In this document: positions 6,724 to 28,709 of the stretch, piece by piece
How the letters are laid out: every line of letters begins with the position of its first letter
Numbering within the stretch: position 1 is the stretch's first letter
NCBI GenBank assembly: GCA_958296405.1
Contig: OY282519.1
Span: forward strand, 726,132-790,131
DNA length: 64,000 nucleotides
Origin: an uncultured Pseudomonadales bacterium
GTDB taxonomy: Bacteria; Pseudomonadota; Gammaproteobacteria; Pseudomonadales; Azotimanducaceae
Reading direction: 5' to 3'
Notes under the pieces: model-generated
Databases searched by the model: none
Told to the model about the DNA's origin: nothing
The model's input: only the letters and a program-made list of their open reading frames with translations
Position numbers and translations under genes: made by a program

Positions 6724-7696
6724 CGCAGCGTGCGCCGGGCTTGAAGAGATCCGGGTAGCCGTTGGCGGCGCTCAGGGCAGTCATGGGGCGCCCCTTGCCG
6801 CGAGCGAGCTGCACCGTTTCCAGCACCAGCGCTCCAGCGCCGCAACCGACGGCGAAGCTGCGCCCGTGCTTGACGAGCTCACCGGGCGGCGCGTTGGCTG
6901 GGATGGCGCTGGCGGCGAGCACGTTCATGCGCACCCGTTCGCTGCGCTCTCCGCTGCACGGCCCCTGCCCTCCGCTAGGTGCCCGCGCTCCGGCCGGCCC
7001 GCGCAGGTGGGTGCGAGCGGGTTGCCGGCCCGCCAAGGCGCGCACTTGGCGTTCGATGTCGGTGGCGGGGCGAGACCAATCGATGATCGCGTCAGACGCG
7101 GTGAGTTTCGGCGCGTAGGTGGCGCGGGCATCATCTTGGGGCGTGGCGCCAAGGTCGTCGAGGCGGTCCAAGCAATCAAGGAGCGCTGTCGCGCCCACTT
7201 CGGCGAGCTGCGCCGTGAGCGTGGCGCCGGTGTCCGCCGCGTCGATGCCCACCTCCCTGCGCAACAGCACGGGCCCCGTGTCCAACCCGGCTTCCATCTG
7301 CATGATGCTGACGCCGGTGATGGCATCCCCGGCCATGATGGCGCGTTCCACGGGTGCCGCGCCGCGCCAGCGGGGCAGCAAGGAGGCGTGGACGTTGAGG
7401 CAGCAGCGCGTCGGTGCAACGAGGGCGGTGGGCGGCAGGATGAGCCCATACGCGGCGACGACGAGCACATCCAAGCCAGAGAGCCAGCGTTCCTGCGCGT
7501 GGAAGCGTTTCGGCGTCTGCACGCACAGGCCCTGCGCCTCGGCGGCCACACGCACCGGGCTTGGCATGAGGCGGCGCCGGCGCCCAGCCGGTCGGTCCGG
7601 CTGGGTGAAGACCACCGCCACGGCATGGCGCGAGCCGATGAGTGCCGCGAGGATGCGCTCGGCGAACTCTGGAGTGCCGGCGAAGCCGAGCCGCAT
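6710..7696 (-). CDS. fmt: Methionyl-tRNA formyltransferase
   Basis: The internal ATG at 7696 gives MRLGFAGTPEFAERIL, the canonical Fmt N-terminus. Also has HASLLPRWRGAAP and SIMQM..GLDTGPV blocks. The longer ORF (to 7873) would overlap def. The C-terminal domain carries a ~19-aa Gly/Arg/Pro-rich insertion relative to E. coli Fmt (aligned by eye). Confidence 0.9.
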   Translation of the reverse strand: MRLGFAGTPEFAERILAALIGSRHAVAVVFTQPDRPAGRRRRLMPSPVRVAAEAQGLCVQTPKRFHAQERWLSGLDVLVVAAYGLILPPTALVAPTRCCLNVHASLLPRWRGAAPVERAIMAGDAITGVSIMQMEAGLDTGPVLLRREVGIDAADTGATLTAQLAEVGATALLDCLDRLDDLGATPQDDARATYAPKLTASDAIIDWSRPATDIERQVRALAGRQPARTHLRGPAGARAPSGGQGPCSGERSERVRMNVLAASAIPANAPPGELVKHGRSFAVGCGAGALVLETVQLARGKGRPMTALSAANGYPDLFKPGARCDVGA

Positions 7697-21735: not shown

Positions 21736-22386
21736 ATGCTGCCGGCGTTCGCCGGCTTTGCTTTGTTGGGCGTCTTTGCGGCGCCGGTTGCCGCGCAGGA
21801 GTTTGAGGCCGGCCGCCACTACGACGTGTTGCCCGTGCCGGTGGAGACTGCCGGCGGCGACGCTGTGGAAGTCGTCGAGGTGTTCTCCTACGCCTGCGTG
21901 CATTGTTACAACTTCGATCCCCTGGTTGCGGCGTGGGAGCGCCGCCAACCGGCGGACGTGCGTTTCGAGCGGTTGCCGGCGCCGATCAACCCGGTTTGGG
22001 AACAGCTTGCGCGCGTCTATTACGCGGCCGAAGCGTTGGGCGTGACCGACGCGCTGCACATGCCGATGTTTGAGGCCATCCATGTGCATCGGGTGGACGT
22101 CCGCGATGAGCAACTGGTGGCGCGCATCTTCGGGCGCTACGCGGAGGTCGAGCCGGAGGCGTTTCAGAGCGCCTACGAATCCTTCGGCGTGGACACGCGG
22201 GTGCGCCAAGCCGCAGCGATGAGCCGCGCTTACCGCATCACCGCGGTGCCGACGCTGATCGTGGCCGGCAAGTACCGCATCGAGGCGAACCTGGCCGGCA
22301 GCTTGGAACGGATGCTGGACGTGGTGGATTTCCTCGTCGCCAAAGAGCGTTCCGAAGCTAACCTGGAGTCCACGCCGCAAGCGTAA
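21736..22386 (+). CDS. dsbA: Thiol:disulfide interchange protein DsbA
   Basis: Thioredoxin-fold CxxC (FSYACVHCYNF) and C-terminal VPTLIVAGKY. The start is either ATG 21736 or in-frame TTG 21691. TTG 21691 overlaps the c4 stop and adds a positively charged n-region (KRQPGRVRWRQ) to the signal peptide. Confidence 0.85.
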   Translation: MLPAFAGFALLGVFAAPVAAQEFEAGRHYDVLPVPVETAGGDAVEVVEVFSYACVHCYNFDPLVAAWERRQPADVRFERLPAPINPVWEQLARVYYAAEALGVTDALHMPMFEAIHVHRVDVRDEQLVARIFGRYAEVEPEAFQSAYESFGVDTRVRQAAAMSRAYRITAVPTLIVAGKYRIEANLAGSLERMLDVVDFLVAKERSEANLESTPQA

Positions 22387-22417: not shown

Positions 22418-25063
<2,646 letters not shown>

Positions 25064-25089
25064 GCCAAAACGCGCGCGTGGTTCCTTGC

Positions 25090-26310
25090 ATGGCGCGAGT
25101 GCTGCCGTTGACGCTCGTTTTGGGCCTCTGCTGCTTCGGCGCCCCCGCGGGCGCCGAAGCAGCTCGCCAAAACGCGCCGGCCGTGCTCCTGCAGGACATG
25201 AGCAAGGCATTCAGCGAAGGGGACTTTGAAGGCAGTTGGCGCAGCCTTCGGCGCTTCTTCGAGAGCGCCCCGCCGGACGAGATGGAGCGTCTGATGTCGG
25301 CCCATTGCTGGGGCGACCAGCGGGCCACGCTCGTCGCCGTGTGTCCACCCGTCGATTTCCTGGCTTGGTTGACAGGGCAGACCGCGGCGGACTTCGGCTT
25401 CGTGGACCGCCTCTGTGAGGTTCGCCGGGACGAGCCGGATGGGTTTGCGTGGCGAGCGGGATGGTCCTGCGATCGGCTGGCCCTCCTCCTCACCAAGCAT
25501 CGGAACGTGTTGTCGTCCAGCTCCCCTCCGTTGCGGAGCGGACGCATGGGGATGAGCCGCCCGAACCAGAGCGAAGCGCGGCGGGTGGCCATCGCCGGTT
25601 GGGAGCACTGGACCTTCTGGGCGCTGCTGGACACGGGGGCCCCCATTACGTCCGTCCCGCGGACAGCTCTGGAATGGGGTGGCGACCGCCTGGAGCGCCT
25701 TGGCACCTCAGTGGCCATCGCTGGGTTCGACGGCGTGGCATGGAACCGGGAACAAGTGCTTCTGCGCGACTTTGGCGGCCCGGGGATGGCGCCGGGTGAC
25801 TTGCCAGCTACAGTGGCGGCCCCGTGGATGCCAGATGGGCTTGGGATCATCGGCATGAACGCGCTGATCCGATTTGAAGCCATGTGCTTTTCGTGGCGGG
25901 ACGAGGTGCTTCATCTGGGCGAGCTCGGTCCATGCGGCGAAGGCGTGCAGCCTCATCGGGCGTGGCTTTCCGGCACCGCGACGCCAATGGTGGCCATAGA
26001 GCGGGCCGGGGCACCGCCGATTCGGGTGTTCATCGACACTGGCGCGCCTTCCACCCACTGCGCGGAAGGCGTGGCCCGCGCCGACGACGTCGTTGGGGAG
26101 CTTCGATTCGGCGACCATCCGGACATGGCGCTGTCATGCGGACACGAGCCGCCTCCCGAATCCGGCAGTTGGCTGAGGCATGCCGATGTGCTCGCGGGAA
26201 TGGAGTTGCTCGCCCGCTTCGACGCCTTCGGCCGGCGGCTCAACCCGTTCGAGATGTACTTCGTCCCCAAGCGGGAGCGCGACGTTGCCCCGGTCGATTC
26301 GGGGGCGTGA
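25090..26310 (+). CDS. Secreted Cys-rich protein with two retropepsin-like (DTGA) domains, paralogue A
   Basis: ATG 25090 gives the signal-like MARVLPLTLVLGLCCFGAPAGAEA. There are two D-T-G-A motifs, at aa 181-184 (nt 25630) and aa 316-319 (nt 26035). Each has a hydrophobic strand before it and a G-[IM]-x-x-L block after it (GIIGMNALIRF; LAGMELLARF), as in clan AA retropepsin-like domains. The mature part has 8 Cys. The ORF-track start at 24946 lies inside aceE. Confidence 0.75.
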   Translation: MARVLPLTLVLGLCCFGAPAGAEAARQNAPAVLLQDMSKAFSEGDFEGSWRSLRRFFESAPPDEMERLMSAHCWGDQRATLVAVCPPVDFLAWLTGQTAADFGFVDRLCEVRRDEPDGFAWRAGWSCDRLALLLTKHRNVLSSSSPPLRSGRMGMSRPNQSEARRVAIAGWEHWTFWALLDTGAPITSVPRTALEWGGDRLERLGTSVAIAGFDGVAWNREQVLLRDFGGPGMAPGDLPATVAAPWMPDGLGIIGMNALIRFEAMCFSWRDEVLHLGELGPCGEGVQPHRAWLSGTATPMVAIERAGAPPIRVFIDTGAPSTHCAEGVARADDVVGELRFGDHPDMALSCGHEPPPESGSWLRHADVLAGMELLARFDAFGRRLNPFEMYFVPKRERDVAPVDSGA

Positions 26311-26482
26311 ACAGCCGCCACCCCCGCCTCCTCCCCCAGATCCCTAGGAGCCGGAGGATCCCAAGGATCGCGAGAGTTGAGGCACGCATAGCGGGCTTTT
26401 TTGGTGGGCCTAGAAGTGGAGTGTTGATCGTTGGCATGGAAGCATGCGGGGTTCTGAAATGCCGCACGGTGTTGTAGGGCGC

Positions 26483-27709
26483 GTGGCCCGATTGCTGCCG
26501 TTGACGCTCGCTTTGGGCCTCTGCTGCTTCGGCGCCCCCGCGGGCGCCGAAGCAGCTCGCCAAGACGCGCCGGCCGTGCTCCTGCAGGACATGAGCGAGG
26601 CATTCAGCGAGGGGGACTTTGAAGGCAGTTGGCGCAGCCTTCGGCGCTTCTTCGAGAGCGCCCCGCCGGACGAGGCGGAGCGTCTGATGTCGGCCCATTG
26701 CTGGGGCGGCCAGCGGGCCACGCTCGTCGCCGTGTGTCCACCCGTCGACTTCCTGGCTTGGTTGACAGGGCAGACCGCGGCGGACTTCGGCTTCGTGGAC
26801 CGCCTCTGTGAGGTTCGCCGGGACGAGCCGGATGGGTTTGCGTGGCGAGCGGGATGGTCCTGCGATCGGCTGGCCCTCCTCCTCACCAAGCATCGGAACG
26901 TGTTGTCGTCCAGCTCCCCTCCGTTGCGGAGCGGACGCATGGGGATGAGCCGCCCGAACCGGAGCGAAGCGCGGCGGGTGGCCATCGCCGGTTGGGAGCA
27001 CTGGACCTTCTGGGCGCTGCTGGACACGGGGGCCCCCATTACGTCCGTCCCGCGGACAGCTCTGGAATGGGGTGGCGACCGCGTGGAGCGCCTTGGCACT
27101 TCAGTGGCCATCATTGGATTCGACGGCGTAGTCGTGAACCGGGAACGAGTGCTTCTGCGCGACTTTGGCGGCCCGGGGATGGCGCCGGGTGACTTGCCAG
27201 CTACAGTGGCGGCCCCGTCGATGCCACATGGGCTTGGCATCATCGGCATGAACGCGCTGATCCGATTTGAAGCGGTGTGCTTTTCGTGGCGGGACGAGGT
27301 GCTTCATCTGGGCGAGCTCGGCCCATGCGGCGAAGGCGCGCGGCCTCATCGGGCGTGGCTTTCCGGCGGCGTGACGCCAGTGGTGGCCATAGAGCGGGCC
27401 GGGGCGCCGCCGATTCGGGTGCTCATCGACACTGGCGCAATTTTCCCCACGGACTGCGCGAAAGGCGTGGCCCGCGCCGACGACGTCGACGTTGGGGAGC
27501 TCCGATTCGGCGACCATCCGGACATGGCGCTGTCATGCGGACACGAGCCGCCGCCCGAATCCGCCGGTTGGCTGATGCATGGCGATGTGCTTGCGGGGAT
27601 GGAGTTGCTCGCCCGCTTCGACGCCTTCGGCTGGCGGCTCAACCCGTTCGAGATGTACTTCCTCCCCAAGCGGGAGCGCGACGTTGCCCCGGTCGATTCG
27701 GGGGCCTGA
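26483..27709 (+). CDS. Secreted Cys-rich protein with two retropepsin-like (DTGA) domains, paralogue B
   Basis: About 90% identical in protein to paralogue A (by eye). DTGA motifs start at nt 27023 and 27428. GTG 26483 aligns with the ATG of copy A. In-frame ATGs at 26444 and 26459 are alternative starts. Confidence 0.75.
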   Translation: MARLLPLTLALGLCCFGAPAGAEAARQDAPAVLLQDMSEAFSEGDFEGSWRSLRRFFESAPPDEAERLMSAHCWGGQRATLVAVCPPVDFLAWLTGQTAADFGFVDRLCEVRRDEPDGFAWRAGWSCDRLALLLTKHRNVLSSSSPPLRSGRMGMSRPNRSEARRVAIAGWEHWTFWALLDTGAPITSVPRTALEWGGDRVERLGTSVAIIGFDGVVVNRERVLLRDFGGPGMAPGDLPATVAAPSMPHGLGIIGMNALIRFEAVCFSWRDEVLHLGELGPCGEGARPHRAWLSGGVTPVVAIERAGAPPIRVLIDTGAIFPTDCAKGVARADDVDVGELRFGDHPDMALSCGHEPPPESAGWLMHGDVLAGMELLARFDAFGWRLNPFEMYFLPKRERDVAPVDSGA

Positions 27710-27802
27710 ACCGGGCGGACGACTTAGCCGTTGTGGTCGAACCTCACCCTTGGGGCCTTTTGAGGATGCGCCCTGGCGAACCGGGGCGACCTGCGCCACC
27801 TT

Positions 27803-28684
27803 CTAACGTCGCCGCGCCGGCCGCCGCTCGCGGGGCTTTGCCCCGGTCATGTCCATCAGCCGCTCGCCGAGGAGTTCCAAATCCTCGTAAGTGGCGTCCA
27901 CGCCGAGTTCCACCGCCTGATTGACGACGATCTGCGACATGGAGAAGCTGCCGCTGGCTGCGTGGATGACGGCGCCGTTGGGCGCGTTTTCCGCGCACAT
28001 GAACAGCACGGCCGGGCTCACCAGCTTGGGATGGCGCTCAGCCGGCGGCGCTTCGACGTCCTCGGCGCGGCCGGGCACGGTGTTGGTCATGCGCGTGGCG
28101 GCGCCCGGCGCCAGCGTGTTGACGCGCACATTGTGGTTCGCTCCCTCAAGGGCGAGCACGTTCATCAGCCCCAACATGCCCATCTTGGCAGCGCCATAGT
28201 TGGATTGGCCGAAATTGCCGAAGATGCCAGAGCCGGAACTCGTCAGCACGATGCGCCCGTAGTTCTGCGCGTACATCAGCGGCCAAGCCGCATGGGTCAC
28301 ATAGGCGGTGCCGTTCAGGTGAACGCTGATGACGAGGTCCCACTCGTCCAAGGTCATGTTCTTGAACGTCTTGTCGCGCAGGATGCCGGCGTTGTTGACG
28401 AGGATGTCGATGCGCCCGAAGGCGTCGATGGCCGTTTGCACGATGGATTGGGCGCCCTCGCGGTCTGAGACGGACGCCTTGTTTGCCACCGCGACGCCGC
28501 CCAAGGCGGCGATTTCCTGCACCACGGCGTCTGCGGCATCGCCGGCGCCGGTGCCATCCACGCTGCCGCCAAGGTCGTTCACCACCACCTTGGCGCCGCG
28601 CTTGGCGAACTCGATGGCGTGGCAGCGCCCAAGGCCACCGCCGGCGCCCGTGACGACGGCTACTTTTCCTTCGAACTCACTCAT
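27803..28684 (-). CDS. Short-chain dehydrogenase/reductase, MFE-2-type (3R)-hydroxyacyl-CoA dehydrogenase-like
   Basis: ATG 28684 is preceded by a GGGAGA Shine-Dalgarno. [28 protein letters not shown] and YGAAKMG (YxxxK) give the pattern typical of the dehydrogenase domain of multifunctional enzyme type 2. Confidence 0.8.
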
Positions 28685-28709
28685 CAATGTCTCCCTGCTT
28701 CGGGGGCGC

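Follow-up and report, generated by a model that had tools for sequence, protein, structure and literature searches.

Two adjacent genes for proteins with predicted export signals and paired D-T-G-A motifs lie in a 64,000-nucleotide stretch (the window) from an uncultured Pseudomonadales bacterium of the Azotimanducaceae (GenBank assembly GCA_958296405.1, contig OY282519.1, positions 726,132 to 790,131 of the forward strand). Copy A (25090..26310, plus strand) starts with ATG, encodes 406 amino acids (aa), occupies the ancestral syntenic position and is identical to P0001, a member of the family described below. Copy B (26483..27709, plus strand) starts with GTG and encodes 408 aa. Alternative ATG starts at 26459 or 26444 would only lengthen the n-region of its signal; the version in public data, P0007, has 416 aa. 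The D-T-G codons of copy A lie at 25630 and 26035, those of copy B at 27023 and 27428. Both proteins share 92% identity over the full length (BLASTP). The DNA repeat comprises the coding sequences ±2 nt only (25088-26312 versus 26481-27711). The copies are separated by a unique spacer of 168 nt (26313..26480), which shows no similarity to the flanks in the sister genomes or to other parts of the window. The G+C content at the third codon position is highest in the called frame of both copies (0.79-0.80), which supports the called strand and frame. Antisense open reading frames (ORFs) overlapping the genes, e.g. 24609-25883 on the minus strand, were rejected as shadow ORFs of high-G+C DNA.

Both products begin with a Sec-type signal, MAR[VL]LPLTL.LGLCCFGAPAGAEA followed by ARQ, which contains one Arg, a 14-residue hydrophobic core and A-x-A at positions -3/-1. 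Sequence rules divide it into the n-region MAR, the h-region VLPLTLVLGLCCFG and the c-region APAGAEA, with a small-x-small site before the next Ala. In copy A the signal peptide covers aa 1-24 (25090..25161, plus strand), with predicted cleavage after AEA. No hydrophobic segment besides the cleavable signal is present in the window proteins of 406-408 aa. A signal-like N-terminus was recognized heuristically in 38 of 47 relatives, in some of them with a lipobox-like motif. The N-terminal helical domain of copy A (aa 25-150; 25162..25539, plus strand) carries a GDFE..W motif and C73, C85, C109 and C127, i.e. four of the eight Cys residues of the mature protein, the others being C266, C282, C324 and C350. 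Lobe 1 (aa 151-283; 25540..25938, plus strand) contains D181-T-G-A (25630-25641), a flap hairpin (aa 201-230) and G255-M-N-x-L, and ends with the linker VC266F-W..LHLGELGPC282. Lobe 2 (aa 284-406; 25939..26307, plus strand) contains D316-T-G-A (26035-26046), C324, C350, G370-M-E-x-L and AFG(R)RLNP..YFVP, and is devoid of a flap hairpin. The clan AA motifs read WALLDTGAP and IIGMNAL in lobe 1, and VFIDTGAP and LAGMELL in lobe 2. These features bear out the original prediction, which had described two tandem genes for proteins of about 406 aa with Sec-type signals, four Cys residues in the N-terminal region and eight in the mature protein, and two D-T-G-A segments (D181 and D316), each with a G-[IM]-x-x-L motif. 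Its placement of aceE 26 nt upstream and of dsbA two genes upstream agrees with the coordinates.

An exhaustive HMMER profile search of 1.84 billion protein cluster representatives (E < 1e-3) yielded a family of 95 proteins or clusters, most of them about 400 aa long and matched over the full length. A word-indexed homologue search yielded four to five clusters, namely three near-identical clusters and one relative with 30% identity. In the family alignment of 47-50 full-length members with 21-38% identity, D181-T-G, G255-M-x-x-L, D316-T-G, C324, C350 and G370-M-x-x-L are conserved in at least 90% of the sequences. The segments VC266F-W...LxLGxLGPC282 and AFGWxLNP are likewise invariant or at least 90% conserved, and the N-domain of the family retains G-D-F-E-x-x-W, C73, C85 and C109. 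Conservation of the motif pairs at this level despite the low overall identity is more than expected by chance. Copy B retains all near-invariant residues of the family. The two lobes are homologous to each other (hhalign probability 96.9%, E 1.8e-10), lobe 2 having a gap of about 25 aa at the site of the flap. PF13650 is matched by 37 of 47 family members (E < 0.01; best E 1.4e-11). In the PDB, the family profile matched best the entry 9iy9, an 'exported protein', with two domains matched (E 1.6e-8), and further Ddi1 and ApRick (E about 4e-5) and tethered dimers of the human immunodeficiency virus (HIV) protease. Pepsin-like entries scored weakly, polyporopepsin at E 0.07 with the family profile and candidapepsin at E of about 1 with a lobe-2 profile. 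PF00026, the pepsin A1 family, was matched neither by the window proteins (E up to 10) nor by any of the 47 members. The family is rare and uncharacterized and, as judged from these profiles, belongs to the retropepsin-like domain superfamily (PF13650/PF13975) at the family level.

The N-domain has no Pfam match in the window proteins or in 47 members, and its first hairpin is at most TPR-like. Designed armadillo and TPR proteins at the top of PDB searches with lobe 2 only or the N-domain only were rejected as artefacts, as their E-values sum many individually insignificant repeat matches. NCBIfam, PADLOC and PHROGs hold no model for the family and gave no match to the window proteins. Scans of metagenome contigs with the patterns AFGWELNP and HLGELGPC found nothing. 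Tandem duplication recurs in the family. Two diverged adjacent paralogues are present in L001, and P0013, P0014, P0015 and P0017 (loci L005, L007, L011) are fusions of two complete units with 740-790 aa. One unit of each fusion lacks one catalytic Asp (N-S-G, G-T-G, S-T-G or N-T-G), the other unit being intact.

An AlphaFold model was built from the 47-sequence alignment. Its mean confidence is high (predicted local distance difference test score, pLDDT, 81.8; predicted template modelling score, pTM, 0.83), and the pLDDT exceeds 90 over most of both lobes. Six helices form the N-domain (residues 29-42, 46-59, 62-74, 88-94, 99-113 and 127-141). Lobe 1 is modelled as beta-rich with a long hairpin (residues 201-230), the Gly-rich tip of which (213-215) is of low confidence, as would fit a flap. 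Lobe 2 is shorter and has no flap-like hairpin. The top Foldseek match in the PDB was 9iy9 (E 3e-13; template modelling (TM) scores 0.61/0.60; 437 columns). It was followed by pepsin, chymosin, renin, plasmepsins and cathepsin D (E about 1e-7; TM 0.35-0.49); soybean Bg7S (3aup) was also among the matches. A viral library returned single viral and phage retropepsin-like domains (TMt about 0.55). It is concluded from the model that the proteins probably have a single-chain, two-lobed, one-flap aspartic-protease architecture assembled from retropepsin-type domains.

The reading as a two-lobed protein of tandem retropepsin-like domains, proposed in the original prediction, is thus backed by the internal homology, the clan AA family matches and the bilobal Foldseek matches. 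The proposed structural match was found, with 9iy9 and then pepsins as bilobal neighbours; together with the pTM of 0.83, these matches speak indirectly for the predicted placement of both Asp on one cleft. The export proposed there fits the signal-like N-terminus of both copies. At the level of profiles the proposal stood for lobe 1, with PF13975/PF13650 matches below the gathering scores and PF13650 matches in the relatives; lobe 2 alone was recognized by hhalign to lobe 1 and not in Pfam. PF00026, also named there, did not appear. The strain-specific second copy, the peptide-export cassette of the family and a solved structure of the same architecture were absent from that account.

The aspartic-protease fold may also serve without catalysis, as a peptide-sequestering protein or receptor with the ligand in the cleft, like the pepsin homologues of the plant xylanase-inhibitor/Bg7S type. 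The Foldseek match to Bg7S points in this direction, as does the replacement W382R of a near-invariant family Trp in copy A. About 10% of the family members lack one Asp (P0019, N-S-G; P0037, G-T-G; P0055, S-T-G; P0027, G-T-G; P0029, N-T-G), and one Asp is gone from one unit in every two-unit fusion, so catalysis is not universal in the family. Yet each of the two Asp is present in at least 90% of the members, both D-T-G-A and both G-M-x-x-L motifs are retained in both window copies and in all close orthologues, and the loss of an Asp in one unit of a fusion is expected if the partner unit stays active. A binding protein without activity is thus improbable for the window copies, and aspartic endopeptidases are preferred.

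The gene neighbourhood of the family was sampled at nine loci outside the window lineage. An HlyD/AprE-type adaptor and an ATP-binding cassette (ABC) exporter are encoded directly downstream in six of the nine (L005, L006, L009, L010, L011, L012). The catalytic C39 motif Q...AECGLACLAM is present in each of the six exporters. Three of them are annotated too short, the motif being encoded in frame upstream of the annotated start (L005 11784-12125; upstream of L006 10615; upstream of L009 3983). A canonical double-glycine (GG) leader ORF lies directly upstream of the family gene in six of nine loci (L005, L008, L009, L010, L011, L012), for example with the leader MRLLNENEMLAVAGG. No upstream GG-leader ORF was recognizable in L006 and L007. 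L007 is a mobile/defence island without the cassette, and L001 is too short to judge. These neighbourhoods couple the family genetically to the export of GG-leader peptides.

In L005, L008, L011 and L012 the core peptides stand out as Pro-rich; in L009 and L010 they are Gly/Thr/Asn-rich with two Cys. Pro-rich GG-leader ORFs were located at L008 922-1134 (plus strand), L005 7800-7982, L011 7702-7869 and L012 about 1013-1300, with TDKPTRPPAPQRPPPRPVWPDPEPLPIPDFPGIKPPP as an example of a core; those of L008 and L012 had not been called as genes. They could represent an undescribed class of exported Pro-rich peptides. In a neighbour-joining protein tree without support values, the Pro-rich peptides track one major clade, which includes the window clade, and the Gly/Thr-rich peptides track the other. 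P0018, which is cassette-linked, is the sister of the window clade. In L011, the GG-leader peptide gene is closely preceded by a six-fold tandem repeat (7327-7626, minus strand; MPEQLLPD on that strand), which may be a regulatory-region repeat rather than a gene. Several family loci are surrounded by defence or mobile genes: the flanks of L005, L007 and L010 contain genes for TIR, ThsB-TIR, BrxC/PglY-like and AbiEii proteins, PIN/MazE pairs, integrases and insertion sequence elements.

Within the window, a GG-leader ORF was found neither near 25090-27709 nor in the spacer between the copies (26313-26480). As no cassette partner is encoded within the 64 kb, the window copies look like orphans.

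Three sister genomes harbor a single copy in the same position, the gene order being polA, engB, cytochrome c4, dsbA, aceE, the family gene and a short-chain dehydrogenase (SDR) gene. One of them, the metagenome-assembled genome OY282379.1 of an uncultured Pseudomonadales bacterium, was the sole match in a profile scan of genome contigs. The single copy in the sister genomes identifies the second copy as specific to the window strain. Synonymous divergence (dS) is 0.060 between copies A and B and about 0.07 between strains, which suggests that the strains split at about the time when the gene was duplicated or a sister allele was captured. Immediately downstream of the gene, the strains differ from one another. 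In one sister genome, the site of copy B is occupied by about 1.1 kb with ORFs of 234 and 70 aa without a Pfam match (L002 7241-8154, minus strand), which marks a strain-variable spot. The contig s105.ptg000110c, the source of L003, measures 7.76 Mb, roughly double the 3.73-3.83 Mb of the sister genomes, and may consist of two related strains joined in assembly; it encodes a separate gene fragment of 109 aa, P0008.

The ratio of nonsynonymous to synonymous substitutions (dN/dS) is 0.56-0.80 in all comparisons with the window copies, versus 0.08-0.09 for aceE. Over all pairs it ranges from 0.32 to 0.80, the lowest value coming from L003 versus L004, the most closely related pair of sister genomes. 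Stops and frameshifts are absent from five full-length sequences with dS values of up to 0.12. Derived changes number 11 in copy A and 9 in copy B. Variable sites are enriched in segments equivalent to the cleft of HIV protease (the flap, the residues that follow D-T-G-A and the loop that precedes G-M-x-x-L), with 23 of 45 positions versus 64 of 337 (p = 8e-6), and the differences between copies A and B show the same bias (12/45 versus 17/337, p = 2e-5); these segments were picked by analogy to HIV protease, partly after the differences had been seen. The concentration of substitutions at predicted cleft positions is suggestive.

General exported proteases for housekeeping or nutrition, co-expressed with aceE and unrelated to the export cassettes, would account for the gap of 26 nt after aceE without a predicted terminator, for the position conserved in the three sister genomes and for the absence of a cassette within the window. 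Such enzymes would not be expected to form a very rare and patchy family of 95 clusters, nor to show dN/dS values of 0.6-0.8 with variation at predicted cleft positions, unlike housekeeping enzymes. In addition, cassettes accompany the nearest outgroup and the majority of the other members, and the spot downstream of the gene differs per strain. This role is quite improbable. Least credible are decaying remnants of a lost cassette, under relaxed selection and without current function, to which the high dN/dS, the missing cassette partners in the 64-kb window, W382R in copy A and the fragment P0008 in a related assembly could point: the reading frames are intact in all five full-length sequences, the family-invariant residues are all kept bar W382 in copy A, the substitutions are clustered instead of evenly spread, and the counts of derived changes in both copies are similar.

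With a probability of roughly two in three, the window proteins are single-chain, pseudo-dimeric aspartic endopeptidases of clan AA, as far as can be judged from sequence and predicted structure; more tentatively, the pair may encode orphan peptide-degrading (resistance-type) proteases. The proteins would be exported by the Sec system and act in the periplasm or outside the cell, with a mature length of about 380 aa. A helical N-domain, probably with two disulfides, would precede two homologous beta-barrel lobes that arose from an internal duplication. D181 and D316, one per lobe, would supply a shared cleft, and a glycine-tipped flap on lobe 1 only would create a pepsin-like asymmetry. The Cys pairs C266/C282 and C324/C350, the linker and the C-terminal strands would tie the lobes together. 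The cassette neighbourhood, comprising a GG-leader peptide, the family gene, an HlyD-type adaptor and a C39 ABC exporter, suggests the exported peptide as substrate, and the protein would act as an endopeptidase on this neighbouring product. The peptide, often Pro-rich, may be matured by the protein or degraded for self-protection. Retropepsins are unusual in cleaving before proline, which fits the Pro-rich cores. A periplasmic protease that destroys re-entering peptide would be a different solution to immunity, with maturation as the alternative. The neighbourhood thus offers a testable substrate hypothesis, the GG-leader peptide encoded next door.

For the window copies, which are orphan, duplicated and diversifying, a role as resistance-type genes is the best fit; this assignment is tentative and the least secure step. 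Still doubtful is the wider proposal that the family is an unrecognized microcin-like accessory, i.e. an exported retropepsin-like protease for self-protection against, or final maturation of, new Pro-rich GG-leader peptides, with the window copies as arms-race resistance genes against the peptides of neighbours. If the neighbouring GG-leader peptide is indeed the substrate, this would add an accessory or immunity protein of a new type to microcin-type systems, and perhaps a further class of Pro-rich peptides as well.

Besides the Asp losses, W382R and the choice of cleft segments, several observations weigh against the assignment as peptide-degrading endopeptidases. In Pfam, the window proteins match PF13975 and PF13650 with lobe 1 only and below the gathering scores (20.4 versus 28.2 and 22.5 versus 24.3 bits). 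On its own, lobe 2 has no significant match in Pfam or the PDB, its Pfam alignments (E 0.002-0.3) covering the motif region only. The structure 9iy9 is labelled only 'putative', and no paper on it was found. Relaxed constraint would likewise account for a dN/dS of 0.7. A tblastn search of the 64 kb of the window, which represent a small section of a 3.8-Mb genome, detected neither an adaptor nor an exporter homologue, and the cassette link derives from nine loci. As exporters of the C39 type that work with an adaptor usually carry their cargo past the periplasm, maturation in that compartment is not an obvious role.

The upstream neighbour of the pair is aceE (22418..25063, plus strand), encoding pyruvate dehydrogenase E1, which served as the dN/dS control. 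It is followed by the two protease genes and not by aceF or lpd. The gap of 26 nt between the aceE stop and the start of copy A (25064..25089, plus strand) is about 90% conserved in the sister genomes. Scans of this gap for a terminator and a sigma-70 promoter were empty, and no obvious Shine-Dalgarno sequence is present. Judging from this arrangement, co-transcription of copy A with aceE is possible. The gene dsbA (21736-22386) lies two genes upstream of copy A, with aceE in between. A functional link to dsbA or aceE was rejected as unsupported, the dsbA neighbourhood being conserved housekeeping synteny. Downstream, the convergent SDR gene (27803..28687, minus strand) forms the boundary of the variable spot. 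The convergent genes beyond the pair encode, besides the SDR, a sugar transferase, a thiolase-like protein, an enoyl-CoA hydratase and a biotin carboxylase. An Rfam search of the window gave no match. The practical result for the window is a better annotation of two 'hypothetical proteins'.

Class II microcin and GG-leader cassettes, such as MccV (cvaC-cvi-cvaA-cvaB) and RaxX-RaxST-RaxA-RaxB, show the same layout as the distant family loci: a GG-leader precursor, an accessory gene, an HlyD-type adaptor and a C39 exporter. The window, in contrast, lacks a precursor, adaptor and exporter within its 64 kb. Class II microcins exert their effect from the periplasm; the immunity proteins known for them are small, not exceeding 216 aa, and sit in the inner membrane with transmembrane helices (PMC12219008). 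The window proteins differ in being protease-like, predicted to be exported, 406-408 aa long and free of any hydrophobic segment other than the signal. In the searchable library, nothing was found that links retropepsin-like proteins to microcin or C39-exporter cassettes.

Few bacterial clan AA peptidases have been characterized (PMC11957791, PMC4140852). APRc/ApRick (PMC4140852; PDB 5c9b), RimB (PMC11957791) and the eukaryotic Ddi1 share with the window proteins the PF13650/PF13975 relationship, D-T-G-A and G-M/L-D/S-x-L. They are single-domain homodimers, whereas the window proteins comprise two diverged, fused domains and are predicted to be exported; APRc is membrane-embedded (PMC4140852) and RimB cytoplasmic (PMC11957791). 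The closest architecture is PDB 9iy9, a 'putative endopeptidase' or 'exported protein' of 420 aa from Bacteroides fragilis, released 2025-08-06. A preprint on a B. fragilis PAR2 protease concerns serine proteases and is unrelated. Like the window proteins, 9iy9 has an N-terminal domain and two tandem retropepsin-like D-T-G domains (motifs FDTGAG and FDTGNS) in one exported chain. It differs in an identity of only 12% and in the alignment of its two domains to lobe 1 of the family profile. The architecture was already present in the PDB; what is new here is the association with the cassette and, in the window, a tandem pair that looks orphan and is diversifying.

With the pepsin A1 family (pepsin, renin, plasmepsins and the bacterial shewasins; PMC4814920), the window proteins share one chain with two homologous lobes, a D-T/S-G in each lobe and only one flap, carried by the N-terminal lobe (Foldseek E about 2e-7 over about 340 columns). 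They differ in lobes of retropepsin size (about 110-130 aa), in TM scores of 0.35-0.49 and in the missing PF00026 match. The prosegment of the A1 peptidases, about 44 aa, is replaced by a different and larger helical N-domain. By these comparisons, the family is an independent duplication-fusion, pepsin-like by design and not a member of A1. It would be a useful point of comparison for a long-standing proposal on how pepsins arose, being a natural and independent instance in which a retropepsin-like gene was duplicated and fused, and one flap was then lost.

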